Shown piece after piece: positions 7,844 through 58,560 of a stretch of DNA of 64,000 nt. The stretch is from Paludibacteraceae bacterium (GTDB lineage: Bacteria; Bacteroidota; Bacteroidia; Bacteroidales; Paludibacteraceae), in the NCBI GenBank assembly GCA_017508305.1, contig JAFVZF010000119.1, positions 34-64,033 on the forward strand, written 5' to 3'. The first letter of the stretch is position 1. The number at the start of each line of letters is the position of its first letter. A program made the position numbers and the translations under genes. The notes under the pieces were generated by a model. That model made no database searches, was not told the DNA's origin, and was given only the letters and a program-made list of their open reading frames with translations.

Positions 7844-7849
7844 ATGTTG

Positions 7850-7912
7850 TTGGTTATTTGGTTATTTGGTTATTTGGTTATTCGATTCACCGATTCACCG
7901 TCGCGTAGCGAC
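7850..7912. repeat. 8-bp-periodic word array (GGTTATTT x3, then GATTCACC x2) plus a small GTCGC-GTA-GCGAC hairpin, directly upstream of clpP
   Basis: Read directly: ttggttatttggttatttggttatttggttattcgattcaccgattcaccgtcgcgtagcgac. Confidence 0.85.
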
Positions 7913-8588: not shown

Positions 8589-8706
8589 CTGTTGATGACA
8601 ATGGGAATAATTGATGCTTTATAGGGCGATTAGAAGATTCGTCGAGTTGAGTATTAAAAGAAGTTAAAAAGCAATCTGCTCTCTTGTAACATTCTGACAA
8701 TTGTCT

Positions 8707-8714
8707 TTACCTTT
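8707..8714 (+). promoter_or_regulatory. Candidate -7 box (TACCTTTG) upstream of the tra operon
   Basis: Matches TAnnTTTG, with a TTG about 22 nt upstream (8683-8685). It is the only such motif I saw between the FNT-like gene and traE. Confidence 0.3.
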
Positions 8715-8856
8715 GTAGCACCGATTTGTCGCATCTTATCGAAGCTCACGCAGTGAGCGACTTTATAAACATCTTAATTTTTAATGGTATGAAATCAATG
8801 TATTTTTTTAGCAGCCTTGGGCAGCATTGTGTAGGTAACCCTTTAAGGAGAAACGT

Positions 8857-9027
8857 ATGTTTGGGTTATCTCAAGTAAGTTGGAGCAGTTTTTTGCTATC
8901 AACGTTTGCTTTGTTAGTTGCATTTAATGGATTGGTATGGGGGTATTATCGTTGGATAGCATCTTCTAAGCACGACCGTTCGGAACAGCAACGGCAAGAC
9001 AAATTTCATCACAGTTTACCTTTTTAA
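8857..9027 (+). CDS. Small hypothetical membrane protein (56 aa) preceding traE
   Basis: Below the ORF-track size cutoff. I read ATG...TAA giving MFGLSQVSWSSFLLSTFALLVAFNGLVWGYYRWIASSKHDRSEQQRQDKFHHSLPF. It has one TM helix and an AAGGAG 7 nt upstream of the ATG. Confidence 0.35.
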   Translation: MFGLSQVSWSSFLLSTFALLVAFNGLVWGYYRWIASSKHDRSEQQRQDKFHHSLPF

Positions 9028-9053
9028 AAGCTTAATTTCTTAATCTTATTTTT

Positions 9054-9365
9054 ATGAAAAAAAATCTGCAAAAATCAGGCCTGTTATTGTTGGCCATGTG
9101 TGCCTCTATTACTTCGTTGTCGGCACAAGGTAATGGCGTTTCTGCCATCGAAAAAGCAAATGCCGAAATTCAGTCGTACGTCGAACCCATGACGCAGCTC
9201 TTTTATGTGGTTTGTGCTGTTATTGGGCTCATTGGTGCAATCAAAGTGTACGGAAAGTGGTCGGCAGGTAGTTCGGATACTACTCGCACCGCTGCTTCGT
9301 GGTTTGGTGCTTGTGTGTTTGCGGTGGTGGCAGTTACCGCCATTAGGGCTTTTTTTATCGGATAA
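9054..9365 (+). CDS. traE: Conjugative transposon protein TraE-like (DUF4134; VirB2/pilin-position protein)
   Basis: 103 aa. Signal peptide followed by two TM helices (FYVVCAVIGLIGAIKVY...FGACVFAVVAVTAI). It occupies the first position of a traE-F-G operon. Confidence 0.8.
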   Translation: MKKNLQKSGLLLLAMCASITSLSAQGNGVSAIEKANAEIQSYVEPMTQLFYVVCAVIGLIGAIKVYGKWSAGSSDTTRTAASWFGACVFAVVAVTAIRAFFIG

Positions 9366-9366
9366 A

Positions 9367-9699
9367 ATGGCATCCTATCCCATTAACAAGGGGGTGGGAA
9401 AAGCTGTAGAGGTAAAGGGCTTGGTGGCCCCTTACCTTCTATGGCTTGTGATAGGCATTGTATTGTCTTTATTGGTGCTGTTTTTACTGTCGATTATATC
9501 GGTAGTGTGGGGGATAGTAGTGGGTACAACTTTACTAATAGGGGTTGTACGGTATTGCTTTTATGCCAATAAAAAATACGGTCCGTATGGATGGATGCAA
9601 CGCCGAGCCGTACAAAAAATTCCACCTCGAATAGCCTTTTCGTTTCCTATTTATCAATTAGTTAGAATAGATGAAAAAAACATTAGGAACTTGCATTGA
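9367..9699 (+). CDS. traF: Conjugative transposon protein TraF-like (DUF4133)
   Basis: The ATG at 9367 lies 1 nt after the traE stop. 110 aa: MASYPINKGVGKAVEVKGL followed by two TM helices. The ORF-track start at 9205 is an in-frame extension that overlaps traE. Confidence 0.75.
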   Translation: MASYPINKGVGKAVEVKGLVAPYLLWLVIGIVLSLLVLFLLSIISVVWGIVVGTTLLIGVVRYCFYANKKYGPYGWMQRRAVQKIPPRIAFSFPIYQLVRIDEKNIRNLH

Positions 9700-12178
9700 T
9701 CGATGTTTCCCGCTATTGGCATGGGAAAATGACTGTCTTGTTAGCAAAAATGCAGATGTAACGGTACTTTTTCGCCTTACGTTGCCTGCTGTTTTTCAAC
9801 GTAATGAGGCACAATACGAGCAAGAGCATGCTGTGTGGGTACGTGCCATGCGTTTATTGCCCGATTATACCATCGTCCATAAGCAGGATATTTACCAACA
9901 AACCGTTTACCAAGCAGCGCATCTGTTACCAATCGAGGGTGATGTTTCATTTTTACAAGCTGCTTCGCATAAGCATTTTGCAGGTAGAAACTACTTGCAA
10001 CATAGCTGCTATTTATACTTTACCTTATCTTGCAAGGATTCGCTTCAGACCACAAGTGTCGCTTCTATGATTTGCCAAAACAGGCTTGTCCCTTCTCAAA
10101 TGTTGGATAAAAAGCGGCTGTCCGATTTTTTGGACAAAGTGGAGCAAGCCAAGACCTTGCTTGGCGAATGGGGTTACCGATTGGTTCGCTTGGGGCAAAA
10201 AGACGTGTTGGGTGCACCGCATTGTGATGGATTATTAACCCGTTACCTCAACTTGCATTTTGATACGACAACAACGGCTTGTATGGCAGATATTCATCTC
10301 TCGGACGGTGATTTGATGGTGGGCAGTAACTATGTGAGTTGCTTTTCGTTGCATCAGTTGGAGCAGCTACCGGGTGCTGTGCATACACATAAGTTGCACG
10401 CGGGCTATACAAATGCTCCTTTGCCCATTTCGTATGTTTCGGGGTTGGGTAGCGAGTTGCCATTCTCGCATATTTACAATCAGTATTTCTTTTTGGATAA
10501 TCACCAAGAAACCATTCGATACATCGAAAAAAGAGGGCGCGAACAGCAATCGCTGTCGGGCGTATCCCGGCAGAATGCCATAAACAAAGCCTGTAATGAT
10601 GCCTATATCGACGCTTCCATTGCCAATGGCAAACGTTCGGTGCGTTGTGCTTTCAATTTGATGCTTTGGGATACCGATTACTACCAATTGTTGCAAAAAA
10701 ATGCGGTAGTGGCGGCGCAGTTTTGCGAGATGGATGCCTTTGCTGCCAAAACAGAAGGCATTGTACCCTTGCTTTTTTGGGCAGCCATACCGGGAGCTGC
10801 CTCACAGTATCCGTCGGAGATGACCTTTTACACCTTTTTAGAGCAGGGAGCGTGTTTTTTAAATTACGATGGCTATTTGCCGCCATCCGATAGGTCAGGG
10901 GTAACGCTTTGCGATCGCACTACCGGTATTCCCATGCAGATTGATTTGTCGGATGCTCCCCTTAAGAAAGGGTGGATTAACAATCGCAATAAATTTATTT
11001 TGGGACCATCCGGTTCGGGAAAATCATTTTTTACCAACCATTTAATAAGAAGCTATTATGATCAGGGCAGCCATATCGTATTGGTCGATGTGGGCGACAG
11101 CTACAAAGGGCTATGCGAGTTAATTGCCGAACAGACCAATGGTGAAGACGGCATATACTATACTTACACCGAGGAACATCCTATAGCTTTTAATCCTTTT
11201 TATGTGGCAGATGCGTGCTATACCATCGAAAAACGAGAACAGCTTTCTGCGCTCATCTTTTGTTTATGGAAAAACGAAAGTGAGCACATTACCAAGGCAG
11301 AAGAAACGCACATTGCAGAGGCATTAAATGCTTATTTGGCATTGGTGACTGATGGGATAGCGGAGGCTTCGTTCAATGCCTTTTACGACTACTTGTCTAC
11401 CTCTTTCAAAAAGCAATTAAAACAACAAGCAGTAAAGTCCGTTCATTTTGATATTGACAATTTATTGCAGGTATTAAAACCCTACTATCGGGGTGGCATG
11501 TACGATTATTTGCTCAATGCAGAGCAACCTATCAACCTCATTGAAAAACGATTCATTGTTTTTGAAATTGACACTATCAAAGACCATAAAACCCTGTTTC
11601 CCGTGGTTACGTTAATACTGATGGACACGTTTATTTCCAAAATGCGTCATCCTTCTGTGGCATCTCATCGCAAAATGATCTTAATAGAAGAAGCTTGGAA
11701 AGCCATCTCAAAAAGCGGGACGGCAGCATTTATTAAGTACCTGTTTAAAACGGTGCGCAAGCACTTTGGTGAGGCTATTGTAGTGACGCAAGAGGTGGAC
11801 GATATTGTGGGCAATGAGATTATTAAAAATACCATTTTGGCAAATGCCGATTGTAAAATATTGCTCGATCAACGTAAATATGCCAACAAATTTGAAGACA
11901 TTAAAAATACCTTGTCTTTTACCGCTCACGAAGCAGCATTGGCCCTTTCTATCAATCAAGATTTGCAGACCAAAGACAGAAATCCTTACAAAGAGGTCTT
12001 TATTACCTTTAATGGAAATGCCCCTGCAGTGTATGGCTTGGAAGTGTCGCGTAGTGAGTATTTGGTGTATACCACAGAGAAATCAGAAAGACTTGCCCTA
12101 CAAACCTTACAAAATCGGCTGGGCTCTTTACAAGCAGCCATTTGCCATTCCGTTACACAAAAAAATCAACAAGTATGA
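9671..12178 (+). CDS. traG: Conjugation system ATPase TraG (VirB4-like)
   Basis: 835 aa. Walker A GPSGSGKSFFTNH, Walker B-like KMILIEEAWKA and IVVTQEVDDI. The N-terminus (FPLLAWENDCLVSKNADVTVLFRLTLP) is typical of Bacteroides TraG. Confidence 0.92.
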   Translation: MKKTLGTCIDRCFPLLAWENDCLVSKNADVTVLFRLTLPAVFQRNEAQYEQEHAVWVRAMRLLPDYTIVHKQDIYQQTVYQAAHLLPIEGDVSFLQAASHKHFAGRNYLQHSCYLYFTLSCKDSLQTTSVASMICQNRLVPSQMLDKKRLSDFLDKVEQAKTLLGEWGYRLVRLGQKDVLGAPHCDGLLTRYLNLHFDTTTTACMADIHLSDGDLMVGSNYVSCFSLHQLEQLPGAVHTHKLHAGYTNAPLPISYVSGLGSELPFSHIYNQYFFLDNHQETIRYIEKRGREQQSLSGVSRQNAINKACNDAYIDASIANGKRSVRCAFNLMLWDTDYYQLLQKNAVVAAQFCEMDAFAAKTEGIVPLLFWAAIPGAASQYPSEMTFYTFLEQGACFLNYDGYLPPSDRSGVTLCDRTTGIPMQIDLSDAPLKKGWINNRNKFILGPSGSGKSFFTNHLIRSYYDQGSHIVLVDVGDSYKGLCELIAEQTNGEDGIYYTYTEEHPIAFNPFYVADACYTIEKREQLSALIFCLWKNESEHITKAEETHIAEALNAYLALVTDGIAEASFNAFYDYLSTSFKKQLKQQAVKSVHFDIDNLLQVLKPYYRGGMYDYLLNAEQPINLIEKRFIVFEIDTIKDHKTLFPVVTLILMDTFISKMRHPSVASHRKMILIEEAWKAISKSGTAAFIKYLFKTVRKHFGEAIVVTQEVDDIVGNEIIKNTILANADCKILLDQRKYANKFEDIKNTLSFTAHEAALALSINQDLQTKDRNPYKEVFITFNGNAPAVYGLEVSRSEYLVYTTEKSERLALQTLQNRLGSLQAAICHSVTQKNQQV

Positions 12179-12891
12179 AAAAATTTTACCTTATACTACT
12201 ACTAATGGCATTGAGCGGTAAACTCTTTGCTCAATTTGTGGTGAGCGATCCCACTGCCATAACCCAGCGCATTACTTTGTTCTTAAACGAAATGAACGAG
12301 AAACTATTAGATCGCAACGAGATGGTTACACAAACCTTTAATACAACGCAGATGCTAAAGCAGGCGCAAGAAGGCATACAAAAGCTGCAAAAGGTAAGTG
12401 CCTATGTGCAAGGAGCCAAAATATCGTACGAGATCATAGACGAGGGGGTAAAATTAGCCAAACAAGTGCAGGATATTCAGCAAAATGTCAGCCGACTTAC
12501 TCACCTTACAGACGAAGAAATTAGCAATGCCATTTGCTTTTCTGCCGAGTTGGGAGATTACATTGCCGACAAAGTAGAAGAAGCAAACGAAATGCTCAGC
12601 AGTAAGAAAGATTTAGGCGAGATGTCCGACTATGAGCGTATCCAACTCCTAAAATCCATTAAAAGCGAATTGGTAAAGCTTCGTGGTATACTAACTGACG
12701 TGCAAAAGCGCTTTAAAAATAAGAATGCGTATGCACTTTGTGAGGATTACCTGCGCTCACTTACCTGCGAAATGATCTTTTTTGCATACGACCAAAAATA
12801 CGGTTTACACACCTCGCAAGTAGGTTCTGTGGTAAAAGAGGTGCAAAAGGCCCAAAAGAAACAAACTAAAAGTAAAAAATCAGACAAATAG
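12175..12891 (+). CDS. traI: TraI-like (DUF4141-type) secreted coiled-coil protein; VirB5/TrbJ-position analogue
   Basis: The ATG at 12175 overlaps the traG stop (ATGA). Signal peptide MKKFYLILLLMALSGKLFAQ is followed by FVVSDPTAITQ, as in Bacteroides TraI and TrbJ N-termini. The rest is predicted coiled coil. Confidence 0.6.
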   Translation: MKKFYLILLLMALSGKLFAQFVVSDPTAITQRITLFLNEMNEKLLDRNEMVTQTFNTTQMLKQAQEGIQKLQKVSAYVQGAKISYEIIDEGVKLAKQVQDIQQNVSRLTHLTDEEISNAICFSAELGDYIADKVEEANEMLSSKKDLGEMSDYERIQLLKSIKSELVKLRGILTDVQKRFKNKNAYALCEDYLRSLTCEMIFFAYDQKYGLHTSQVGSVVKEVQKAQKKQTKSKKSDK

Positions 12892-12898
12892 TACAACC

Positions 12899-13843
12899 AT
12901 GTCAGAAACAATGTCCTTGATGCAGTCCCTTGCATCCCAATTGGCAGTTGCATTACAACAGGTGCAAACAACTGCCCAAGAGTATGCCGATGCACTTGTT
13001 ATACCTGCCCAACTTTTGTGTGGATTATTTGCTCTGATTTATATAGGAGTAAAATTAGGCGCAAGTTGGGGAAGAGGCGAGAAGATAGATTTCTATGCAC
13101 TATTGCGGCCCTTTTCGGTCGGATTGATTATTGTCTTTTTTTCTGCTTTTGTATCCCTTTTGCAGTTGGTGGTAACTCCCATTGAGATGGCAGCAACTGC
13201 ACTCAATGAGTCGGTATACGAGCCATACGTACAATCACAGAACAACTACTTGCAGGCGGTGCAAAACGTTAAAAACAGCATGGCTGTATACGAGCGCAAG
13301 GCGGTACAAAATGAGACCCAAATCGTAGAGGAGGTAATGGACGCATCTATGTCAAAAGAACAGCCCCTTTTTAGGCAAAGCATAGCATACTTGGCGCAAT
13401 TGACGCAGGTTGGGGTATCTGGTATGGTCTATTTTATGCAAGTGTATGTGGTGTTGGCACAGCTTGTCTTGCTCTTGGTGGGTCCATTTGCTTTTGCACT
13501 GTCTTTGCTACCGGGTTTTTCGGCAAACATCACTCATTGGATGTTGCATTTTGTGCGCCTATCCATGTACAGGCCTCTTTGCCATGTGGTTGGTTTTATG
13601 GTGGCAGTATTGTTTGCTACTTGTGTATTTCCTGTTTTCGAACAGCAGCTCAACCTATTACCGGCGAGCGAGTATACTTTTTCGGATCATGAGTTGGCGC
13701 AACACATTCAATTTTCCATACAACTCATCTTTGTATTGTTTAACAGTATAGCCATAGCCCTGTATGCCTGTATTCCTACTTTTTCTAAATGGATAGTGGG
13801 CCGCAGTGGAATTTCTACTTGGTTAGTGTCATCAAAAAAATAG
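12899..13843 (+). CDS. traJ: Conjugative transposon protein TraJ (VirB6-like polytopic membrane protein)
   Basis: 314 aa with multiple TM helices. It occupies the position between traI and traK. Confidence 0.8.
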   Translation: MSETMSLMQSLASQLAVALQQVQTTAQEYADALVIPAQLLCGLFALIYIGVKLGASWGRGEKIDFYALLRPFSVGLIIVFFSAFVSLLQLVVTPIEMAATALNESVYEPYVQSQNNYLQAVQNVKNSMAVYERKAVQNETQIVEEVMDASMSKEQPLFRQSIAYLAQLTQVGVSGMVYFMQVYVVLAQLVLLLVGPFAFALSLLPGFSANITHWMLHFVRLSMYRPLCHVVGFMVAVLFATCVFPVFEQQLNLLPASEYTFSDHELAQHIQFSIQLIFVLFNSIAIALYACIPTFSKWIVGRSGISTWLVSSKK

Positions 13844-13844
13844 T

Positions 13845-14465
13845 ATGTTTCAATCGTTAAGAAATTTACAGAGTGCATTTGCTCTGACCCGAATCTATTT
13901 GATTCTACTTACCGTGGTATGCCTTACCGTAAGTCTGTATGCCTTGTATTCGGCGTATGTTTTTGCCGAAAAGCAACGCGAAAAGATTTATGTATTGGAC
14001 AGTGGACAGTCCTTGCTTCTTGCACTTTCGCACGATGTAACCGAAAACAGGGTTGCCGAGGCAAAATCGCATGTAAAGCGATTTCATGAGTACTTTTTTA
14101 CCTTATCGCCCGAAAAATCGGCCATCGAAGAGAATGTGCAACAGGCGCTGTTTTTGGCAGATAACTCTGCTACCGAGGTGTATTTGCGCATGAAAGAGCA
14201 AGGATTCTACGAGCAGCTAATAGCCTCGGGTATCATGTGTGAGGTAAAAATAGACAGTATCGTTATCAACGATGCCGTATACCCCTATCAGGTCAAGACC
14301 TATGCTGTGACGTCTGTTGTGCGTCGTTCTACTATAACCTATCGTCGGTTGGAAACTACTTGTGCATTGTTGCATTGTACGCGCACCGACAATAATCCGC
14401 ATGGTTTTTTGATGGAGAATTGGCAAATTACCGATAACAGCGATTTATACGTAGTACAACGATAA
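13845..14465 (+). CDS. traK: Conjugative transposon protein TraK (VirB8/VirB9-region analogue)
   Basis: 206 aa with an N-terminal TM anchor (IYLILLTVVCLTVSLYALY). Size and order are as in CTn tra operons. Confidence 0.8.
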   Translation: MFQSLRNLQSAFALTRIYLILLTVVCLTVSLYALYSAYVFAEKQREKIYVLDSGQSLLLALSHDVTENRVAEAKSHVKRFHEYFFTLSPEKSAIEENVQQALFLADNSATEVYLRMKEQGFYEQLIASGIMCEVKIDSIVINDAVYPYQVKTYAVTSVVRRSTITYRRLETTCALLHCTRTDNNPHGFLMENWQITDNSDLYVVQR

Positions 14466-14476
14466 TCTATTATAGT

Positions 14477-15517
14477 ATGTGTCATCAACAAAAATTAATA
14501 CATGCCGTATCGTGCTTGGTATGGGGCTTTGCCTTGCTTTGTTTTTATATTTTAGGGGGAGGAACAGCCGTCGATGCTGCCTCTGATACAGATGCGATGT
14601 CGGCTGGAATCAATCTATCCCTTCCAATGGCAGATACCCAAGAGTTGTCTGCCTCCCGATTAGAAGCCTTCAAAAAGGAAGCCGAACGACAACAACAAGT
14701 TTTTGCAAGCGAAAAACGACAAAACTCTTCCTCTTTTCAGTGGTATAATTCATCGCTAACCCAATCGGACACAACACTTGTTGCTGTGCGTGAGCAGCCG
14801 TCGGTGGTAGCTAAAGTTGCACAATCGGCAGCTGTGACCTCTTCGGTATCGAGCAAAAGCACACGTGCCAAAACGATGGATGAGAAAGAAAGGCACCGGT
14901 TGCTTACTGAAAAAAAACGTCAGTTGGAGAAACTATTGGGAGTGGCATCCGAAGAAGTGGCCGATACATTGCCATCTGCTCCTGTCAGTGTTAACGTAGC
15001 GCAATGCGAAGAAGTTCCCGATGGATTTTACGGTCTTCCAACCAACAAAATGGCCACTACTGCCATTCGTGCTGTGGTGCACGGCGAACTTGTGGGGTTA
15101 CAGCGAGGAGCCATTGTCAAATTGCGCTTATTGGACGATATTGTTGTGCAGTCCACCCACATCCCTGCCAATACGTTTTTATACGGTCAGCTATCTTTTA
15201 GCTCGTGTAGAGCCATGATTCACATAGAAAACATTCCATACAAGAATGCCATTTATCCCTTTAAAGCAACCATTTACGACAAGGACGGTTTTGAAGGCTT
15301 GTATGTGCCTGATAATAGGGTAGAGGAGGCCGCTCGAAAAGCCGGTTCGCAAGCCATAGGCAGTATGAATTTGCGCCTACCTGCCGCCTCTTTGGTCTCA
15401 AATGCCGCCAATGCTGCCATTGGAGCGGTGCAGTCTGTCGCACAATCGAGCGTCAATGAACCTAAAATATCCATTTCGTCCAACTATTCTGTAACCATTA
15501 AATTACAACTCCAATGA
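14477..15517 (+). CDS. traM: Conjugative transposon protein TraM (VirB10-like)
   Basis: 346 aa. TM anchor, then a low-complexity, charged linker and a C-terminal beta-rich domain. No separate traL ORF precedes it. Confidence 0.75.
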   Translation: MCHQQKLIHAVSCLVWGFALLCFYILGGGTAVDAASDTDAMSAGINLSLPMADTQELSASRLEAFKKEAERQQQVFASEKRQNSSSFQWYNSSLTQSDTTLVAVREQPSVVAKVAQSAAVTSSVSSKSTRAKTMDEKERHRLLTEKKRQLEKLLGVASEEVADTLPSAPVSVNVAQCEEVPDGFYGLPTNKMATTAIRAVVHGELVGLQRGAIVKLRLLDDIVVQSTHIPANTFLYGQLSFSSCRAMIHIENIPYKNAIYPFKATIYDKDGFEGLYVPDNRVEEAARKAGSQAIGSMNLRLPAASLVSNAANAAIGAVQSVAQSSVNEPKISISSNYSVTIKLQLQ

Positions 15518-16584
15518 AACGATTTTTACAGCTGGGGATTATCTTGTCAGTGTGCATACCCCTTTGTGCCAATTCTATTTTTTATGTCAATCACACTCAG
15601 CAACTCACCTTGCAATTTCCATCGTCTATCAAATACGTGGATGTTGGTAGCAAAGAAATACAACTTACCCAAATGTCCGATAATTGCAGTCTATCCATAC
15701 GTGCCAAGCAACAAGGAGTGTCGCCTACTACGCTCTCGGTGGTAACAGCAGATGGAAGCTACTATCTGTACCAATTGCAGGGGGCAGACATTTTGCCTTA
15801 TTTGTCCTATCGTATTAACAAAGGGGCGCTTGATGCACCCATTATGCGCATAGCCCAACAGCAAACCACTCATTTTATAGCTCCCTTTGCGCTGAGCGAT
15901 TGGGCAGTGGGAAACGATTCGGTTATTGCTGCCTACGCCGATGGCATACGCAATATGGTTCGGGTAAAAGCCTTGCATCGTTTTACTTCGCAGTCGTCTT
16001 TTACTTTGTTGGGAAGCCATGGAGAGCTATTTTCCTATCGATTGGTCTATTCGGACAGTGTGCCTCAACTATCGGTACAACTAACCGATTCGTTGTCGCA
16101 AGAAGCTATCTTTTGGGATAACCCGATGGATGCACATCTGCTAAAAAAATTAGCAGAAAAAGCCTTGCAGCAAAATTATACCAACAATCACTTAGGGGTA
16201 GTAGAGCATCGTATGCAGTTTTCGGCAGCCGGTATCTTTAGCTATAAAGGTTGGTTGATGCTTCGGTTGCAGTGCCAAAACCGCAACAATATCGATTACG
16301 AAATCGATTTTATTAAGGTGTACATCGCCGACAAAAAAGGGAGCAAACATACGGCCCTACAAGAAACCGAGATTACTCCCTTTTATACCTATTGCAGTGA
16401 TAGTATTGTTCAATTATTGCCTGCCCAATCCCAACAAGAGCAGGTCTTGTTTTTTAACCGTTTTACCCTACCCAAACATCGCATGCTCTACATAGAGTTG
16501 TTTGAAAAGAACGGGGGTCGGCATTTGCAGTTTTCTATTTCGCACAAGGAATTATTGCGCGCCAAGGCACTTACTTTGCCTTAG
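15514..16584 (+). CDS. traN: Conjugative transposon protein TraN (DUF4138; VirB9-like)
   Basis: 356 aa with a signal peptide. Its start overlaps the traM stop (ATGA). It is the last gene of the operon. Confidence 0.8.
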   Translation: MKRFLQLGIILSVCIPLCANSIFYVNHTQQLTLQFPSSIKYVDVGSKEIQLTQMSDNCSLSIRAKQQGVSPTTLSVVTADGSYYLYQLQGADILPYLSYRINKGALDAPIMRIAQQQTTHFIAPFALSDWAVGNDSVIAAYADGIRNMVRVKALHRFTSQSSFTLLGSHGELFSYRLVYSDSVPQLSVQLTDSLSQEAIFWDNPMDAHLLKKLAEKALQQNYTNNHLGVVEHRMQFSAAGIFSYKGWLMLRLQCQNRNNIDYEIDFIKVYIADKKGSKHTALQETEITPFYTYCSDSIVQLLPAQSQQEQVLFFNRFTLPKHRMLYIELFEKNGGRHLQFSISHKELLRAKALTLP

Positions 16585-24670: not shown

Positions 24671-25636
24671 TTATCTACAGAAGTGTTTTTGGTAGCAGAA
24701 GGTGTATCCCAACATAATTTCGTGGGTACCATAGTTCTGTGTTACCAAATTGTTCAAGTCGAGGCTAAATGCGTAGCCCAATTGGAACTGCCCAATTCTA
24801 AAACCGCACATGGGCATCAATACCATGGCCTGAATATTATTGGGATTCCAACAATGTCTGTACGATGCCTGCACCCAATAGCCCCAATCTTTGTCTACGT
24901 CATGACCAAATTTAAGGTTTAAGTCCATGTTTACCTCAAGGTATTGGTTCATTTTAAGCATCGCCATTGGTTCTATGTACTTGTCTTTACGTGCACCTAA
25001 ATCGAAGGTGTAGCCCCCAAACAAGAAGCCTGTAAAAGGAGCCGGAAGTTCCTTATCACCATAAATATCGGCAGCAAGCGGAATCAAGTTAGTAAGCGAT
25101 AGTCCTACAAAACCACCGTACGACTTATAGTATACGCCAAAATTAGCATTGGGCAAGAAACCATCGCGGTTGTTAAAGGCAATGTCTTGCATGGCATCGG
25201 GGTCGTCGATAAACAGTTGATCGTTTATGTAAAAGTAGCTAAACTTAAACGAAACACCAAACGAAAATTGTCTGTCGTATGATACCTTTTTGGAGTATCT
25301 TCTACCTTTGGATAACGGAATGTGATAGGCCAACGACACCTGACCACCTGCCTTGCTGGTGTAACCGTTACGGTCGTGAAATAGGTAAGCACCGATACCT
25401 ACGTTTTTCCAAACACGGGTCTTAAACGAGAGCAATTGTGTCATGGGAAAATCGTTCATACCTGCCCATTGCATTTTATTGCTTACCATTAAGTGAGAAC
25501 AAGGTTCTGCGCCTGCCAATGCGGGGTTAACAAGGTAGTAGTTAAAATGATACTGATTGTAAATTAACTCTTCTTGTGCAGATAGCTTGCCTGCCGCAAG
25601 TAAAGCTAATAATAGTATGCATACGTACTTTTTCAT
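24671..25636 (-). CDS. PorP/SprF family type IX secretion system membrane protein
   Basis: 321 aa. Signal peptide followed by QEELIYNQYHFNYYLVNPALAG, typical of the family. Beta-barrel-like sequence. It lies immediately downstream of a type-B-CTD cargo gene. Confidence 0.85.
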   Translation of the reverse strand: MKKYVCILLLALLAAGKLSAQEELIYNQYHFNYYLVNPALAGAEPCSHLMVSNKMQWAGMNDFPMTQLLSFKTRVWKNVGIGAYLFHDRNGYTSKAGGQVSLAYHIPLSKGRRYSKKVSYDRQFSFGVSFKFSYFYINDQLFIDDPDAMQDIAFNNRDGFLPNANFGVYYKSYGGFVGLSLTNLIPLAADIYGDKELPAPFTGFLFGGYTFDLGARKDKYIEPMAMLKMNQYLEVNMDLNLKFGHDVDKDWGYWVQASYRHCWNPNNIQAMVLMPMCGFRIGQFQLGYAFSLDLNNLVTQNYGTHEIMLGYTFCYQKHFCR

Positions 25637-25707
25637 AGTGTAAAGATAGTATTTATTTTATATGGTTTACAAACTTGAGTTATCTTCTTTATAAGTCGAC
25701 CACTTTC

Positions 25708-28700
25708 TTAACGTTTAAGAGTAAAGTGTCCGGTGTATTGTTTTCTTATTTCTTCGACCGTAATTAAGTACCAATAGTCGTCGCTGGGCATTTGGTGTCC
25801 ATTGTAGGTGCCATCCCAACCAAAAGGTTCACTGCCACTGATGCTTTCTGCACTAAACGATCCGGTGCGGTATTCGTATAGTCTACGACCATATCTGTCA
25901 TAAATTTCTACAATATACGATGTGTATTGATCCAAATTTTCTACTGTCCACAATTCAGATTTAGCATCACCTTCGCCATTGGGTGTAAAGTACTTTTTGG
26001 GTAGTACCGGAATAGGACTTATTTCAAAGAGTGAATCTACTTCGCATCCTACGGCATCCACTACGTACATACGGTGATAGCCAATAGGAACTTCGCCTAT
26101 AACTCGGTACGAGTAGGGAACTTCCTTGCTGTCAATGTAGAAGGTGTATTCGGGTGTTCCGCCGGTGGCATCCACGGTAACTTCTCTAATGTCTGTCTCT
26201 TCCAGTTGTGTAATAGTAGGACGTGGATTTACTTTTACGTAAATAGAGTCGCTGGTAGAACATACATCCGAGAAAATAGCTACGTAATACCATGTATCTA
26301 CATTGGGGGATGCTTTGGTTTGTTGTTTTTCGGGAGTAGCAAGATCCTTGGCAGGCGCCCATTTGTAATTGTAGTTGCCCGATGTGTGTACCTCTAAGGT
26401 AGCTTCGTCGCCATCACAAATGGTGGTGCTGTCGGCAAGTTGAGCAACAATACCCGGTTCTACTTCTACTTCTACTTCTTTTGTTGCTTGGCAAATGTCA
26501 ACTACCTTGGCGGTGTAGATTACCTTGCCTGTTTGTACGGGTTGTACTTCGTAGCTTGTGTCTGCCGATAGAGAGTCGGTGCCTAACCACCAGCTAAACG
26601 ATGCGCTTGGGTATTTTTGTAACGCATTGGTGGTAAGGGTGGTAGAATTGCCGGCGCATATCTTAGCAGGGTCGGCAGTAGCTGTAAATTCTATAGCCGC
26701 ATGTACGTTGGCAGTAGCAGTAGCACTGTTGTTACAAGTTCCGTTTGTTACCTCCACTGTGTAGGTTTTGGTTCCTTGCTCTTGCGGTTTGTATTGTTTT
26801 AGGTTTTTGCCCGATTCGCCTGTAATGGCTACGCCGTCTTCTAACCATTTATAGGTAGGATTGCTGCCCAATACGGTGGCGTCGCTGTTGATTACAGAAA
26901 GCGTATCGCCCAAACAAATATCCGATTTAGTTACGCTTAATACGGGTTGAGGTTTTTTGTCAACATTGATGGTAATGGTATTTTCGCCATCGCAAGGACC
27001 ATTTTTCAAAACAGCCTTATAGGTAGTGTTAGCGGTAAGTGCATCGGTGTCGTTTAGTGTATTGCCCGATACGCCACTTACCAGCACATCGTTTTTGTAC
27101 CATTCAAACGACTCGCCGGTAAGTAATTCGCGCTCTGCTTTGATGGTAACGTTGGTGCCTTCGCATACAGTAGTACCTTGTTGGCAAGACATTTCAAATT
27201 TAATCTTGTCGCCTACGGCTACTTCGATAGTTTGAGAGCTACCACAAGCGGTTACATCGCCAATGGTTAGTTTGTAGGTAACCGTGCCTTCTGTAGTACC
27301 TACCGAACTATCCTTATAAATTAGTTCGGTAGTGCCGGCTGTAAGTGTACCGGTTTTTACTTCGGTGCCGTTCTTTTCCCACTTGTAGTTGCCGCTGCCG
27401 CTGGTAATGGTTGCTTTGATGTCTGCTTGGGGCGCAGTGGTACATACCATGGCGGGTGCGCTTAGGGTAAATTGGGTGTTTTCGCTCAATGCGTACGTAG
27501 CGTCTACGCTATTTTCGCATGCGGAGGCTGACGATGCTTTGACACGAATTTTACCCGATACAGCTGCAGTTTGCTTGGCAATGGTGTATGTTTTGCTATT
27601 GTCGTTATTAAGGTCGGTTTCGGTACCACTGGCATCCACGCTGTACCATTTGATGGTAGCACCATTTGGAACAGTTACGGTAAAGGTGCGCGAAGCATCG
27701 CTTTCAAAGTTAGCCCAACAACCACTAATAGAAGATTTGTCAATAGTTAGTGTAATCTTGTCTTTTACAGTAACGGTTAGTTCGGTTTTTTCGCTTTCGC
27801 AATATTCGTCACCGGTGGTTATGTCTTTGTCTTTTTGGTAAGTTACATAGTAGTGATAGGTGCCGGCAGTACTAACATCCACGGCTGTTGCCTCGGCAGC
27901 AGTCATGGGAGTAGTAGCAGTTTCGCTACTGTACCAGCGAATGGTACCTCCTGTTGTGGTGCTGGTAATTTGCTTGTGTAGATCCAATTTAGTGGTACTT
28001 GCACATTCGGTGTAGGGTTTTACTGTGGGAGCAGTAGAGGCTTCGCACAAGCATTTGTATGTAATCTTAATCGGATCAGATACGGCAGTTAATGCACCGC
28101 AACCTGTGTTTTGTGTGCCTGTTGTTGCAGATTCTTCTACAGCAGCTTTGGTAGCACCTACCCACACGCGGTAATATAATCCGTTTCTGTATCCAGTGGG
28201 ATCGACCGTAATAGTAATGGATTCTTGGGTAGTAGCTTCTGTGCCTACATTGCTCCAAGGTCCTGTCGCATTGTCTGAGGTTTGGAACAAATAGTGGGGT
28301 GTGTTAAAGAATTCTTTTAAATCATAATCGGCAAGTGCATCCAATGTTAAATCTTGGTTGGCGCCTGCGTTACATACCACTACTTGGGGTTCGTGCTTGT
28401 GTTGGCTGTCGTTGTTCGAATAAATTTGAATCTCAGGACTACACGCACTAAACAGAATATCGTCGATACCAATATCATTACCAACAACGGTGGTTTCTGT
28501 TCCTTGGTAGTTGTTTTCGATGGTCAGCACAAACCGGGTGTTGGTGCCCGAGTTAAACGAACCGCCTTTGGGGGTCCAGTCGGTACCTACACCAAGGTTG
28601 CCCGTAGATGTTTTTACCAATTCCTTGCCACTGGGGTATCCCACTACCTTAAACGTAGCATTTACCGGCGCGTGCCCATCGGTGTTGTCCACGTTGGTAA

Positions 28701-29865
28701 TCCATGCCGAAAAGTCGTAGTAAGAGTTTTGGCAAAGGGCGGTGGTAACTTCGTATTGGAAAAATACGCCCGGATCTTTTTTTGCATTGACCAATAAGAA
28801 ACCATCTTGACCGCCATCTTTGGTATGACCTGTGCGCACAGGGGTAGATTGCCAGTGTCCACCCTCACTGGCTTTCTTGACAACGGCATAATAGCCATCA
28901 TCAATATCGCCACTACTCTTGTAGGTGTATGTTGTGCTTGCATTTGAATTTATATCGCTTAACTTTTTGCGTCCGCCAGAGTAGCTAAAACTTTCTTTTA
29001 GCACTTCTGCAACCAATGCATCTGCCGCACAACATACCACAGGACGTATGCTAGTGGTTGTATATATTACATCAGAACCTGCAGAAGCACGGTAGTGCGC
29101 TTCTTGTGATACATTGATTTGGAGAGTAGGATCGGTGGCACCCGCTATTACTTCCCAAGTTGCCTTGTTGTTGATAGATTTTTCCCATTTAATGGTTCCC
29201 GATAGCCCTACGGCAGTAAGGGTGGTAGGCTCGCCCGCACATACTTTTTCGCCGGCAGAACTGGTAACCATTTTTTTGCACTTGCCACTGATGGAAATGT
29301 TGGTAATGGCAAAGTAATTTAGGTTTTTGTTGTTCCAACTGGGGTTGTATGAAAAAACCACGCTGCCTTCAGTTTGTGTGGCTTTTAAAGTCCAGGTAAT
29401 TGTAGTGCTACTGGTACCAATTGTTGGCCATTGTGGTTGTACAGTGCTACTCCCGCTAGCATCTTTCATGCCTGCCCAACTGTTTTTTACTTCCATGGCA
29501 TCGCCATTACCTTTGGCAGTTAGTTTTACGGTATAGGTTTCGCCTACAATTAAGTTACTAAACTGCACGTTGATTAGGGTATATCCTTCGGTATCATCGT
29601 CGTATCCAAATTCTGCAGTGTTGTTGTTAATGCGGTATTTTTTCTTTTTTCCGCTTACACTACTGCTTTGGTAGTCATAGCCGGTACTGATTTCGGTAAT
29701 AAAAGGAGCAGCAGGTTGTACATCCTCCATTCGGTAGGTTGTGCCCGAAACGCCCGATTTTTTTTGAAAGTTGAGCGAAGCTGTCATGCTAACAACATTT
29801 TGTCCCCAAGTGGTTGCAGCAAACAAGAATAATGTAAAGAGTAAAGAAAAAGCTCTTTTTGTCAT
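25708..29865 (-). CDS. Large T9SS cargo/adhesin with repeated Ig-like domains and a type B C-terminal sorting domain (gliding-motility-associated CTD)
   Basis: 1385 aa with a signal peptide. Many repeats of ~80-90 aa carry paired Cys. The C-terminus reads YFTPNGEGDAKSELWTVENLDQYTSYIVEIYDRYGRRLYEY...WDGTYNGHQMPSDDYWYLITV...GHFTLKR. Confidence 0.85.
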   Translation of the reverse strand: MTKRAFSLLFTLFLFAATTWGQNVVSMTASLNFQKKSGVSGTTYRMEDVQPAAPFITEISTGYDYQSSSVSGKKKKYRINNNTAEFGYDDDTEGYTLINVQFSNLIVGETYTVKLTAKGNGDAMEVKNSWAGMKDASGSSTVQPQWPTIGTSSTTITWTLKATQTEGSVVFSYNPSWNNKNLNYFAITNISISGKCKKMVTSSAGEKVCAGEPTTLTAVGLSGTIKWEKSINNKATWEVIAGATDPTLQINVSQEAHYRASAGSDVIYTTTSIRPVVCCAADALVAEVLKESFSYSGGRKKLSDINSNASTTYTYKSSGDIDDGYYAVVKKASEGGHWQSTPVRTGHTKDGGQDGFLLVNAKKDPGVFFQYEVTTALCQNSYYDFSAWITNVDNTDGHAPVNATFKVVGYPSGKELVKTSTGNLGVGTDWTPKGGSFNSGTNTRFVLTIENNYQGTETTVVGNDIGIDDILFSACSPEIQIYSNNDSQHKHEPQVVVCNAGANQDLTLDALADYDLKEFFNTPHYLFQTSDNATGPWSNVGTEATTQESITITVDPTGYRNGLYYRVWVGATKAAVEESATTGTQNTGCGALTAVSDPIKITYKCLCEASTAPTVKPYTECASTTKLDLHKQITSTTTGGTIRWYSSETATTPMTAAEATAVDVSTAGTYHYYVTYQKDKDITTGDEYCESEKTELTVTVKDKITLTIDKSSISGCWANFESDASRTFTVTVPNGATIKWYSVDASGTETDLNNDNSKTYTIAKQTAAVSGKIRVKASSASACENSVDATYALSENTQFTLSAPAMVCTTAPQADIKATITSGSGNYKWEKNGTEVKTGTLTAGTTELIYKDSSVGTTEGTVTYKLTIGDVTACGSSQTIEVAVGDKIKFEMSCQQGTTVCEGTNVTIKAERELLTGESFEWYKNDVLVSGVSGNTLNDTDALTANTTYKAVLKNGPCDGENTITINVDKKPQPVLSVTKSDICLGDTLSVINSDATVLGSNPTYKWLEDGVAITGESGKNLKQYKPQEQGTKTYTVEVTNGTCNNSATATANVHAAIEFTATADPAKICAGNSTTLTTNALQKYPSASFSWWLGTDSLSADTSYEVQPVQTGKVIYTAKVVDICQATKEVEVEVEPGIVAQLADSTTICDGDEATLEVHTSGNYNYKWAPAKDLATPEKQQTKASPNVDTWYYVAIFSDVCSTSDSIYVKVNPRPTITQLEETDIREVTVDATGGTPEYTFYIDSKEVPYSYRVIGEVPIGYHRMYVVDAVGCEVDSLFEISPIPVLPKKYFTPNGEGDAKSELWTVENLDQYTSYIVEIYDRYGRRLYEYRTGSFSAESISGSEPFGWDGTYNGHQMPSDDYWYLITVEEIRKQYTGHFTLKR

Positions 29866-33185: not shown

Positions 33186-33390
33186 GGCATAATCAATGCT
33201 GGCATTTCGACAAGCTCAATGACCGCATTGCTTTGCAATCATATTGCATAATTTTTCGGTCCCTGAGCCTGTCGAATTTTGCGAGTAAGTGAGAGCAATG
33301 ATAAGCTTGCTTAATCATTGCCGAACGAGAGCAACTTATTACATGATTTTAGGCATCGGCTCAGCATAATCCATGTAAACATGGTTTCTG
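33186..33390. repeat. Repeat nest: an inverted S stem-loop, a truncated S unit, an inverted H-core copy and a further hairpin fragment
   Basis: 33201-33226 is the reverse complement of an S unit. 33258-33276 is cggtccctgagcctgtcgaa. The reverse complement of 33281-33335 matches 47057-47110 closely (gcaatgat...atcattgc hairpin). Confidence 0.85.
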
Positions 33391-33467
33391 CATTCACCTC
33401 GCACTAAAATTCATGAGCATAGCGAATAAAGGGCCCGAAACAATGATAAACCAAATATACATTATAC

Positions 33468-35828: not shown

Positions 35829-35992
35829 TTACTCAAAGCTTCGCTTTTCGTGAAGTTGCTTTCGTTAGCTTCGCTCAAGTTGCTCACGCTCGGCATAATC
35901 AATGCAAACATTGCTTCTGCTCTCGCTTAATCGCAACAGTCGGCATAATCAATGTAAACATTGCTTCTGCTCTCACTTAATCGCAACTTTTG
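35829..35992. repeat. H-core repeat element whose hairpin-containing half is tandemly duplicated (35891-35940 and 35941-35987)
   Basis: ...gttgctcacgct followed by two copies of cggcataatcaatg(c/t)aaacattgcttctgctct(c/t)(g/a)cttaatcgcaac. Confidence 0.9.
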
Positions 35993-35993
35993 A

Positions 35994-37220
35994 CTACTCC
36001 TTCTCTGCTTTGGCAATTTCCTTTTGAATCTTTTTAGGTAGGTTGTCTACGCAGTGGTGGCATTTCATTTCTTTGGTATACATACGACCAATGCAATAGT
36101 TGCTATGTTTGCATCCACAGCGATACGAGCTGTCTGCCTCTTTCATTTTGTTGACAAAAGCAGGATCGTGCACCAATGCACGTGCCATTTGTACCAATTC
36201 AAAACCACTGTCCAAAACTTCGTCTATTTTTTCACGACTCACCAAACCACCCACATAGATGATGGGCATTTTTAGCTCGGCACGGAATTTCTTGGCATCT
36301 TCTAAGAAGTAGGCCTCTTTAAAGGGTACAGTAGGAATCATCCATCTGCCCACCAATGCCAAAGCCGCTTTTAACCACCAGAATTTGCACATATCCATAT
36401 AGTGTGCCAATGTTTTTAGGGGCATTGCTCCACGCATTACAGCCATGGGTGCTTTGCTTACAAAGCCGGCACTCAACACAACGGCATGCACACCAAATTT
36501 TTCAATTTCTTTGGCTACGGTGATGCAATCGGGCAACTGCAATCCGCTCTTAAATCCGTCGTACATATTGGTTTTTACCACTACAGCCATGTCGTTTTTG
36601 GCAGCCACCATTACTTCGGTAAGCACCTCGCGCATAAAACGCATGCGGTTGTCAAGCGAACCTCCGTATTCGTCGCGGCGTTTGTTGGTATAGGGCGACA
36701 AAAATTGCGATATCAAGTACCCATGTCCGGCATGTATTTCTACGCAATCAAAGCCTGCCTCGCGGCACATGTTTACAGCTCTGCCAAAATCTTTTACCAA
36801 CTCTTTTATTTCGCTTACTTTTAGTCCGCGTACCAAGGTGGGCGAGTAGAGGTTAAAACCGCTCGATGCTCCCACAGGCATGCAACCACAAGTGTAAAAG
36901 TGGGTCATGTTGCCACAGTGACCCAACTGAATGCTGGCTTTGGCACCCTTGGCATGGATGGCATCGGTTAGCTTCTTTAATTCGGGAATGATTTCCTGAC
37001 GCATCCAAAGCTGACCATCAAACGAAACACCGCTTTTGTTTACGGCACAGTAGGCAATGGTAGTCATACCAATGCCACCTTTGGCAACGCTGGTGTGGTA
37101 GTCAAACAAATCTTGCGATGGTTTATTGCCATAGCACATGTTTTCGAAAGCCGCCGAACGAATGGTGCGGTTTCTTAATGTAATGGGTCCTAATTGATAG
37201 GGTGTGAATAGTTTGCTCAT
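35994..37220 (-). CDS. NADH:flavin oxidoreductase, Old Yellow Enzyme family
   Basis: 408 aa. The OYE hallmark is HAGHGYLISQFLSPYTNKRRDEYGGSLDNRMRF. The C-terminal tail is Cys-rich (CGCKHSNYCIGR...CHHC). Confidence 0.88.
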   Translation of the reverse strand: MSKLFTPYQLGPITLRNRTIRSAAFENMCYGNKPSQDLFDYHTSVAKGGIGMTTIAYCAVNKSGVSFDGQLWMRQEIIPELKKLTDAIHAKGAKASIQLGHCGNMTHFYTCGCMPVGASSGFNLYSPTLVRGLKVSEIKELVKDFGRAVNMCREAGFDCVEIHAGHGYLISQFLSPYTNKRRDEYGGSLDNRMRFMREVLTEVMVAAKNDMAVVVKTNMYDGFKSGLQLPDCITVAKEIEKFGVHAVVLSAGFVSKAPMAVMRGAMPLKTLAHYMDMCKFWWLKAALALVGRWMIPTVPFKEAYFLEDAKKFRAELKMPIIYVGGLVSREKIDEVLDSGFELVQMARALVHDPAFVNKMKEADSSYRCGCKHSNYCIGRMYTKEMKCHHCVDNLPKKIQKEIAKAEKE

Positions 37221-57361: not shown

Positions 57362-57420
57362 AGCTGAAGTTTCTTTTAGGCAAATATAAACAAAAATATA
57401 AGAAAGTGAACAAATTTGCG

Positions 57421-57507
57421 GCAAAAGTGTGAAAAACCATGTGATTTTTCCTACTTTTTCACAGGTTTGCTGTGGTTTTTGATAGGAAAGGTGTGAAAAA
57501 GTGGTAT
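57421..57507. repeat. Right copy of the 87-bp direct repeat (upstream of the ATPase gene)
   Basis: gcaaaagtgtgaaaaaccatgtgatttttcctactttttcacaggtttgctgtggtttttgataggaaaggtgtgaaaaagtggtat. Only a handful of mismatches to 55853-55939. Confidence 0.9.
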
Positions 57508-57630
57508 AAACAGGCAATAAAAGATCAACGGCTGTAACTTATCTAAGCTTACATAAATGTTAAACATATATTGAAATTTGTGAATGAAGGCTATTTTAAA
57601 TATTTTTGTACTATAAAATACTGTAATAAT

Positions 57631-58089
57631 ATGAGCACTACGAGTTATAGCAATGGATATAGTGGATTGGCTATCGCGGATTACTTTGTAAAAAAAGCTT
57701 TATCTCAAAATGAATCCATAACTAATATGCAAGTACTTAATATGATGTACTTTGCACAAACATTTGGATTTACAGAATTAAACAGGCGGTTAATTAAAGA
57801 TGAATTTTACGCTTGGCAATGGGGACCTGTTGAGCCTAAAACATACGCGGAATTTCGGAAATATGGAGGTCAAAGTATAAAAGAAATTTCCCATAAAACT
57901 AATAAGGAACTTGACGATATAGAGAGTCAAAAAGATATAAAAGAATTTCTTGATAAAATATATATACTGCGAACAGCAGATCCTTTTGTTCTTAACAAAA
58001 AAACTAACGGTCTTGGTAGCCCATGGGCTGAAACAAACCCTTATGGTGCAATTGACATAAGTCTAATTCGTAATGATTTTATAAAATAA
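57631..58089 (+). CDS. Panacea (DUF4065) domain protein, SocA/GepA-like putative antitoxin
   Basis: ATG at 57631. 152 aa: LAIADYFVKKALSQNESITNMQVLNMMYFAQTFGFTELNRRLIKDEFYAWQWGPVEPKTYAEFRKYG fits the DUF4065 pattern (KLQKLLYFAQ...AWxxGPVxxxVY). AT-rich. Confidence 0.75.
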   Translation: MSTTSYSNGYSGLAIADYFVKKALSQNESITNMQVLNMMYFAQTFGFTELNRRLIKDEFYAWQWGPVEPKTYAEFRKYGGQSIKEISHKTNKELDDIESQKDIKEFLDKIYILRTADPFVLNKKTNGLGSPWAETNPYGAIDISLIRNDFIK

Positions 58090-58460: not shown

Positions 58461-58494
58461 AATAAAAAAATCAATCCGGTCAAATAGGTAAAAT

Positions 58495-58525
58495 AAAGGT
58501 TCAGAAGAAATGCTTCTGAACCTTT
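58495..58525. terminator. Bidirectional rho-independent terminator between the convergent TM-protein and LRR genes
   Basis: AAAGGTTCAGAAG-aaatg-CTTCTGAACCTTT. Confidence 0.8.
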
Positions 58526-58560
58526 ATTACATAACTTATTAAGGAAACTTTTACGTAAAC

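Follow-up and report, generated by a model that had tools for sequence, protein, structure and literature searches.

A conserved CTnDOT-type operon without mobility genes in Paludibacteraceae, probably a domesticated type IV secretion apparatus

The 64,000-nt stretch of DNA analysed here, referred to below as the window (Paludibacteraceae bacterium, GCA_017508305.1, contig JAFVZF010000119.1), carries at positions 8857-16584 an operon of conjugation-type tra genes. Judged by its protein families, the operon belongs to the Bacteroidetes or CTnDOT-type class of type IV secretion systems (T4SS), namely the mating-pair formation (MPF) class MPF_B. Our results indicate that it probably specifies a domesticated, chromosomally fixed and minimal MPF_B apparatus, which would be neither a mobile element nor a decaying fragment; that the operon has been domesticated and is functional appears highly likely from its pattern of conservation. 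Of the two proposals made in the initial annotation of this DNA, one was a domesticated T4SS serving a purpose different from self-transfer, and it is strongly supported by the synteny of the locus, the monophyly of its TraG, its co-divergence with core genes, the purifying selection acting on it and the intact copies found in assemblies of the same species. The other proposal, an element mobilised in trans, is not sustained, as no element borders are present and the locus does not vary in place as a mobile one would.

The operon is composed of nine intact and tightly packed genes on the + strand, a short open reading frame (sORF) followed by traE, traF, traG, traI, traJ, traK, traM and traN, with near-zero intergenic space between all nine open reading frames (ORFs). 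traF and traG overlap by 29 nt, and the remaining junctions are either 1-11-nt gaps or ATGA overlaps (traG/traI at 12175-12178 and traM/traN at 15514-15517). ORF calls and family profiles recover the eight tra genes initially annotated as a translationally coupled set with ATGA or 1-12-nt junctions; the gene set and the coupling are retained, whereas the ninth gene had been missed and the traF/traG overlap is longer than described. The sORF (8857-9027) encodes a 56-aa, single-pass membrane protein (MFGLSQVSW...SLPF), a truncated homologue of the gene found at the traD position of integrative and conjugative elements (ICEs). It is followed by traE (9054-9365), encoding a VirB2-like pilin with a signal peptide (PF13572 DUF4134, 104 bits, above the gathering score), which is the best-conserved protein of the operon (76-90% identity within group 1 and 67-82% to group 2 of the relatives presented below), and by traF (9367-9699), encoding a VirB3-like inner-membrane protein (PF13571 DUF4133, 57 bits, above the gathering score), which gene callers skip, yet which is intact in same-species assemblies. 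traG (9671-12178), the sole ATPase gene of the locus, encodes a VirB4-family protein (TIGR03783, 915 bits for a cut-off of 262; PF19044, 588 bits), whose Walker A (GPSGSGKS) and Walker B (ILIEEAW) motifs are intact, as first reported, and agree with the MPF_B norm.

The traI-like gene (12175-12891), whose true start is the ATG at 12175 within the ATGA shared with the traG stop, encodes a secreted, all-helical protein at the VirB5/TraI position. Its DUF4141 score is sub-threshold (19.6 bits for a cut-off of 30), its homologues at 55-58% identity carry PF13605, and it is 24-31% identical to the products of the traI-position genes of true ICEs (tblastn); an AF2 model built from a 17-sequence alignment is helical, with a low confidence (pLDDT 45.6). 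traJ (12899-13843) encodes a divergent, VirB6-like polytopic membrane protein (TIGR03782, 76 bits for a cut-off of 290, E=3e-21), and PF07863 CtnDOT_TraJ is on record for a protein 98.7% identical to it. traK (13845-14465) is VirB8-like (TIGR03781, 254 bits for a cut-off of 152), and traM (14477-15517) is VirB10-like (PF12508, 124 bits; TIGR03779, 138 bits, under the cut-off of 172) and fast-evolving, with 45-59% identity within group 1. Finally, traN (15514-16584) encodes a VirB9-like outer-membrane core protein (TIGR03780, 217 bits for a cut-off of 164; PF13595 DUF4138, 206 bits), and its stop overlaps by 4 nt the stop of a convergent M23 peptidase gene. In terms of the Bac_Flav_CT and DUF profiles, G, K, N, DUF4134 and DUF4133 pass, and J, M and DUF4141 stay below their cut-offs. 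By sequence comparison, TraJ and TraM would be divergent homologues, not equivalogs, of the MPF_B families, to which their homology is clear.

The homologies described for CTnDOT equate TraE with VirB2, TraF with VirB3, TraG with VirB4, TraI with VirB5, TraJ with VirB6, TraK with VirB8, TraN with VirB9 and TraM with VirB10; traG-N are reported as essential, and traO-Q as possibly regulatory (PMC4027160). The set retained in the window is exactly that of the MPF_B proteins with VirB homologues. It is collinear with the CTnDOT-type operon traA-traQ, to which it is also alike in the Bac_Flav_CT_G subfamily of its TraG, in the EEAW of the Walker B motif and in the tight gene packing. Unlike that operon, it has neither traA-D, save the 56-aa stub at the traD position, nor traH, traL, traO, traP and traQ; it has no linked relaxase, MobC, TopoIII, integrase or att sites, it is a fixed part of the core chromosome passed on by vertical descent, and its TraJ, TraM and TraI are below the equivalog cut-offs.

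The absence of mobility genes is consistently observed in the window. Pfam scans, which cover nearly all ORFs of at least 150 aa, detect no relaxase (PF03432 or other), type IV coupling protein (T4CP), integrase or recombinase domain and no VirB11-like ATPase. When proteins from the true ICE loci found in the TraG search presented below (e.g. the L031 T4CP, the L028 MobC and two relaxases) are used as tblastn queries, nothing real is found in the window for T4CP, relaxases, TraA, TraB, TraH, TraL, TraO, ParA, TopoIII, PcfJ, PcfK or MobC, the sole match to the T4CP query being the P-loop of TraG. No ORF stands at the traH, traL, traO, traP or traQ positions of the window operon. The initial annotation had listed traA-D, traH, traL, traO, traP and traQ, a relaxase, a T4CP and an integrase as missing from the window; these absences are borne out, except that the stub of the traD-position gene is present. 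The borders had likewise been described as free of tRNA and att repeats, in accordance with an empty tRNA scan of the 64-kb window and with direct repeats that are only short, chance-level matches, none of which brackets the operon. The GC content and skew of the operon are indistinguishable from those of its flanks. The operon fails every defining test of a self-transmissible ICE.

The flanks are made of core genes, as had been proposed, with RecQ, ClpX, ClpP and an FNT-family channel on the left and M23, DUF4292, TPR and dut on the right. Across the window, the functions recognised by Pfam are RecQ, ClpX/ClpP, the FNT-family channel, the M23 peptidase, DUF4292, TPR, dUTPase, ferritin, a Na/H exchanger, a NadB-like protein, PorP with a type IX secretion system (T9SS) cargo, MutS, PolA, fumarase, IspG, MurE, Tsf, RpsB and RplM. 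As only 8.8 kb of the window lie to the left of the operon, a contiguous ICE could in principle have its remaining modules just outside. This is extremely improbable, and is refuted by the core flanks on both sides: the left one, its RsmA-like, GtrA-like and LPG-synthase-like genes included, is core sequence in synteny with L002, L005, L026 and L088; on the right, core genes (among them MutS, PolA, Tsf and RpsB) extend over 47 kb; and neither ICE modules nor att sites are found anywhere in the 64-kb window.

Relatives of the operon were recovered by a TraG search over one genome per GTDB species, which gives 79 loci, and their mobilisation genes were judged within the window or within 10 kb on either side of the operon. 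An orphan operon without mobilisation genes in that range is found in 28 GTDB species of Paludibacteraceae/'Ca. Enterocola'. In group 1 (L002, L003, L004, L005, L008, L026+L071 and L033, all metagenome-assembled genomes, or MAGs, of Paludibacteraceae or 'Ca. Enterocola'), the same nine genes stand between FNT-ClpP-ClpX-RecQ and M23-DUF4292-TPR-dut, so that the clpP...dut interval has the same flanks in seven further species (eight genomes in total); TraG is 68-74% identical to that of the window, and ClpP and dUTPase 91-98%. In group 2, which comprises 21 species with a TraG 55-59% identical to that of the window, the operon adjoins the genes for YbeY and a Gate-domain protein, beyond which lie, in the upstream direction, those for GidA, Apt, UvrC, Dtd and DeoC. 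It is followed by genes for a TraO-like outer-membrane barrel, a T9SS type A sorting-domain protein (about 1310 aa) and a lipoprotein (about 257 aa), at L017:16860-22121 and at the corresponding positions of other group-2 loci. Homologues of these three proteins are found on the ICE-like loci L035, L036 and L078, and the giant T9SS protein may be a mating-pair adhesin. Neither the group-2 accessory genes (for the TraO-like protein, the 1309-aa T9SS protein and the 257-aa lipoprotein) nor the group-2 left-flank genes (GidA, YbeY, Gate, UvrC) are found in the window. Group 3 and some of the group-2 loci keep an ORF at the TraL position.

No T4CP, relaxase, ParA or PcfJK gene is found within 10 kb of the operon in any group-1 or group-2 locus, and tblastn with the L031 T4CP and two ICE relaxases is negative in all the loci of groups 1, 2 and 3. 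Distant loci, with a TraG identity of 38-51%, are found in Cytophagales, Sphingobacteriales and other Bacteroidales; many of them are true ICEs or plasmids, with genes for a relaxase, a T4CP and ParA less than 10 kb away. In a neighbour-joining tree of TraG, groups 1 and 2 form a clade in 100/100 bootstraps, apart from ICE-borne TraG, and group 1 is nested in group 2 as the sister of subgroup 2a (92/100 bootstraps). Pairwise TraG identity tracks that of two flank markers, the Gate-domain protein (r=0.81, 171 pairs) and GidA (r=0.88, 66 pairs). The operon is syntenic in all the related genomes recovered, without insertion polymorphism or patchiness among them.

Selection on the operon was assessed between and within species, the latter with two assemblies of the window's species, L086 (SRR24752792) and L088 (GCA_965318285.1), which are 98.7-98.9% identical to the window. 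These same-species relatives were found through exact-protein look-ups, and a metagenome scan with TraN for close relatives yields two short contigs only. Within the species, the nine tra genes have a dS of 0.036-0.039 and an omega of 0.075-0.085, compared with a dS of 0.031-0.040 and an omega of 0.044-0.048 for the flanking core genes. As the tra dS equals that of the flanks, the operon and its flanks share one history, and the low omega of the tra genes reflects purifying selection. Between species, the dN/dS of the tra genes is 0.06-0.27, values which are rough since dS is often saturated (NG86), and which are similar to those of the neighbouring TPR and DUF4292 genes; purifying selection is in this way seen at both levels. 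L086, L088 and L089 have the nine ORFs without any gap, and L001 and L090 are intact over the portions of the operon that they contain; four to five independent assemblies of the species thus have every frame intact, and no frameshift is found in these same-species genomes. The intactness of all frames, taken at first as an argument against simple decay, extends in this way beyond the window.

A decaying ICE remnant, deprived of its other modules and with frames kept intact by chance or recency, would account for the absence of mobilisation, integration and accessory tra genes and for a traF gene that is truncated in L008 and L087. It is nevertheless very improbable, and effectively refuted by the conservation data, given the nine ORFs that about 28 species and several assemblies of the window's species keep intact, the low omega both within and between species, the conserved promoter (see below), the co-divergence with core genes and a GC content equal to that of the flanks.

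A second clade of orphan operons is formed by L027, L075, L076, L052, L029 and L030, which come from other Bacteroidales MAGs, with the operon at about 9.0-17.5 kb in 22-kb loci. Its architecture is sORF-E-F-G-I-J-K-(L)-M-N, with the TraL-position gene kept. The neighbours are chromosomal (YidC, MATE, DUF4197, ComM-like, sugar transferase); L027, L075 and L076 are mutually syntenic, and the upstream DUF4197 gene is common to L029, L030 and L052. Mobilisation or T4CP genes are not found within 10 kb in the six second-clade loci. The clade has a 100% bootstrap and its sister (100/100) is L028, a true ICE with a relaxase, ParA, TopoIII and MobC, which indicates, on the basis of the TraG tree, that this second orphan clade arose independently. 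The convergence on the same reduced set suggests that the set itself is what selection keeps.

By homology, TraG (VirB4) would energise assembly, TraF, TraJ and TraK (VirB3, VirB6 and VirB8) would form an inner-membrane platform, TraM and TraN (VirB10 and VirB9) an envelope-spanning core, and TraE and TraI (VirB2 and VirB5) a pilus or surface filament. The retained set would then amount to a complete channel and pilus with one ATPase. As everything that selects or processes DNA is lost, we infer that the apparatus assembles without transferring its own locus, and as the operon has no linked coupling protein or relaxase in any of about 30 species, the selected function would probably be independent of a coupling protein. 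A pilus or channel working without coupling protein is accordingly the role that we favour, by a modest margin of confidence. By analogy, the leading candidates for this role would be DNA uptake of the ComB kind and adhesion or contact between cells; an export of host DNA is less favoured. A DNA-importing T4SS is expected to be without VirD4 (PMC13395361), and DNA uptake specifically is nonetheless a doubtful assignment for this operon. A cell-contact role is possible in view of the retention of TraI here and of TraO, the T9SS protein and the lipoprotein in group 2.

By analogy, the ComB system of Helicobacter pylori appears as the closest functional analogue, the logic being alike without the operon being a member of the same family (the window TraG scores 88 bits against TIGR00929 VirB4_CagE, for a cut-off of 643). 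ComB is also a chromosomal T4SS without VirD4 or relaxase, with equivalents of VirB2, 3, 4, 6, 8, 9 and 10; it is itself host-beneficial, belongs to the core gene set and imports DNA. It differs in being MPF_T, in having lost VirB5 and in needing a distant VirB11 (ComB11), whereas the window operon keeps the VirB5-like TraI and MPF_B has no VirB11.

Several points weigh against a domesticated apparatus that is independent of a coupling protein. A T4CP or relaxase could possibly lie beyond the window and beyond the 10 kb considered on each side of the relatives' operons, and in H. pylori, ComB11, the T4SS ATPase needed by ComB, is encoded far from the comB operons (PMC13395361). The VirB5-like TraI is kept here, unlike in ComB, and the group-2 TraO, adhesin-like T9SS protein and lipoprotein fit cell-to-cell mating equally well. 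In one group-1 sub-lineage, L008 (5740-5912) and probably L087 (10471-10649), traF has apparently lost its central membrane hairpin and is reduced to about 60 aa while the rest of the operon is intact, which could be real decay, a tolerated loss or an assembly artefact, most relatives being MAGs.

Some of these points would find an explanation in a split or helper conjugation, in which the operon provides the mating channel and the T4CP and relaxase come from another locus, or from integrative mobilisable elements with their own T4CP. MPF_B channels are otherwise known from conjugation only (PMC4027160), the full pilus and channel set is kept, VirB5-like TraI included, the group-2 accessory proteins look like mating-pair accessories, essential T4SS parts can lie far from the main operon, as ComB11 does, and other Paludibacteraceae MAGs carry true ICE-type loci. 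However, although the surroundings of the operon have been locally rearranged several times on both sides, none of about 30 species shows a T4CP, relaxase, TraA, primase or TopoIII gene linked to it, and there is no obvious reason why serving foreign mobilisable elements would impose a host-level omega of about 0.08 over a family-level divergence. A second tra copy, which could have marked this one as a rearrangement fragment, is not detected by the TraG scan of species-representative genomes in groups 1 and 2, which is weak evidence. We regard split conjugation as rather unlikely, while still the most serious competitor of a domesticated apparatus.

The channel could alternatively deliver effectors to neighbours or to the medium, in a protein secretion or a contact-dependent antagonism, as MOBless T4SS of other classes often secrete proteins (PMC3158045, PMC3548315). 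TraJ, TraM and TraN are moreover fast-evolving and recombined between lineages, as surface or recognition structures tend to be. When the operons of two GTDB species representatives, L002:8839-16900 and L004:1-7872, are compared, the nucleotide identity is 98-100% over the stretch between the sORF and the end of traG, then falls to about 80% for traJ-traK and to 45-75% for traM-traN. From this profile, the L002/L004 operon reads as a recombination mosaic, in which divergent alleles of the outer-core half appear to have been exchanged between lineages, possibly under a diversifying selection on surface parts. Against protein delivery, known effector T4SS recruit their cytoplasmic substrates via VirD4, and the operon is without VirD4 and VirB11. 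Ptl of Bordetella and VirB of Brucella do work without VirD4; these T4CP-less exceptions are MPF_T systems, still have VirB11 and have known protein substrates, whereas no substrate candidate is linked to the window operon. Candidate effector or immunity genes are not conserved beside group-1 operons either, and protein delivery has so far been shown for MPF_T and MPF_I only (PMC3548315). This role is therefore improbable for the operon, markedly more so than split conjugation.

T4SS without relaxase, or MOBless T4SS, are a frequent and recognised category, read as exaptations of conjugation systems (Guglielmini et al. 2011, 2012; PMC3158045, PMC3548315). The window operon corresponds to their definition, being a chromosomal VirB4-containing MPF cluster without neighbouring relaxase or integrase (PMC3158045); unlike it, the characterised exaptations are MPF_T and MPF_I (PMC3548315). 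Compared with this precedent, what is newly documented is an MPF_B case with vertical inheritance, a streamlining series and a second independent origin. Our search of the accessible literature finds no orphan or exapted MPF_B system described as conserved, and nothing specific on T4SS in Paludibacteraceae, which is an absence of evidence only. The operon might be the first documented exaptation of MPF_B into a host-owned organelle, consisting of eight VirB-homologous proteins and a 56-aa stub, fixed throughout a family-level clade of gut and rumen Bacteroidales, evolved at least twice and free of coupling protein (e.g. a ComB-like uptake system or an adhesive or contact pilus); we advance this tentatively, with slightly less than even confidence. 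To our knowledge, all T4SS exaptations recognised so far (Cag, Dot/Icm, VirB effectors, ComB, Ptl) belong to proteobacterial MPF classes, and the T4SS class of Bacteroidetes is known solely as a conjugation machine, structurally almost unstudied.

The streamlined MPF_B operon is a natural experiment on the minimal set that selection keeps for a working channel or pilus, and it suggests that Bacteroidales of the gut and rumen, which are abundant and for the most part uncultured, have a function at the cell surface that has escaped notice. It also offers a clean system to ask what a T4SS can do without coupling protein, and its two independent origins and stepwise reduction series allow comparative tests. 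A caution for annotation follows, as pipelines counting 'conjugative transposon protein Tra*' genes will score such core-genome operons as mobile.

The relatives also give insights on how the layout of the window arose. Homologues of the window M23 peptidase include proteins on contigs bearing group-2 operons. On the L017 contig, the order is GidA, YbeY, Gate, tra, traO, the 1309-aa protein, the lipoprotein, Ldh, TPR, patatin, RNase R, dut, TPR, DUF4292 and M23, the latter being about 16 kb downstream of traN and on the same strand; in L006, the dut-TPR-DUF4292-M23 block is about 7 kb downstream of the lipoprotein gene on the same contig. Since the dut...M23 block lies downstream of group-2 tra on the same contig, the tra genes and the block were already linked in the common ancestor. 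An independent insertion of the window locus between FNT and M23 is ruled out by these group-2 contigs. A local inversion or deletion instead explains the window layout, in which M23 is convergent and abuts traN and the three accessory genes are gone. These comparisons show that an ancestor of the 'Ca. Enterocola'/Paludibacteraceae gut-rumen clade acquired, beside ybeY/gidA and upstream of the dut...M23 block, the mating-pore module of a CTnDOT-like ICE, all DNA-processing genes being lost. The older layout is sORF-E-F-G-I-J-K-(L)-M-N-traO-T9SS giant protein-lipoprotein, and the window lineage keeps sORF-E-F-G-I-J-K-M-N after the inversion or deletion that brought M23 against traN. The captured module has since been inherited vertically and streamlined.

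L089 (GCA_965349515.1), another genome of the window's species, illustrates a further rearrangement: its operon and right flank are 99.9% identical to those of L088, and its left flank is DnaB/POR/S41 protease, with a breakpoint that adjoins an 85-94-nt dispersed repeat. Rearrangements to its left and to its right have thus left the operon whole. Dispersed intergenic repeats of about 85-128 nt are found in the window (33324-33417 and 35867-35994), in L088/L089:6311-6404 and in L088:5398-5521; one copy lies upstream of the tra promoter in two same-species genomes and not in the window. These repeats may be elements resembling miniature inverted-repeat transposable elements that drive the rearrangements. 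The short clpP-FNT intergenic region of the window also contains three copies of an 8-nt tandem repeat, GTTATTTG (7845-7883), a spot at which L088 has about 120 extra nucleotides.

Upstream of the operon, a putative Bacteroidetes-type promoter stands on the + strand at 8684-8715, with a -33 TTG at 8684-8686 and a -7 box TACCTTTG at 8708-8715. This block (TTG, a 21-nt spacer and TACCTTTG) is kept in 7/7 aligned upstream regions of group 1, where it reads ...cTcTTGtaacattctg..aaTGTcTTTACCTTTG, and we take it to fit the TAnnTTTG/-33 TTTG consensus of Bacteroides. It is followed, in the group-1 upstream alignment, by a 5'-leader hairpin, GCTCAC-GCA-GTGAGC (8744-8758, + strand), and then by a conserved TTTATAAACATCTTAATT. 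The hairpin is identical in five relatives; L005 has at this position a different perfect hairpin (GTCGC-GAA-GCGAC), and in L008 the hairpin is deleted. It may be a regulatory leader element, and an Rfam search of the upstream region 8300-9200 matches no family. Another hairpin, terminator-like and located at the 3' end of traE (9323-9344), was considered as a pilin attenuator and rejected, as its consensus fold over 12 relatives is at -2 kcal/mol and shows no covariation.

The length and the motif of the sORF are conserved throughout group 1, and an sORF of 51-84 aa with an MFGLxxISW...FL motif is found upstream of traE in most orphan operons, in all three groups. Searches of Pfam and NCBIfam give no match for it. 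In the true ICE L028, the same motif is the N-terminus of a 246-aa gene directly upstream of traE, which identifies the sORF as a retained, truncated membrane anchor of the traD-position gene.

Elsewhere in the window, positions 55940-59301 have a low GC content, 0.33-0.37 compared with about 0.43 elsewhere, and encode an ATPase_2/AAA protein (55940-57517), a SocA/Panacea antitoxin-like protein (57571-58089) and a BspA-type leucine-rich repeat protein (58561-59301). This stretch may be an islet of limited size, acquired and carrying toxin-antitoxin or defence functions. At 24671-29865, a PorP/SprF gene forms a pair with a gene for a 1385-aa Ig-like/CHU_C T9SS cargo. Finally, a 1341-aa ORF at 59856-63884, without Pfam match, has no similarity to the giant protein of group 2.

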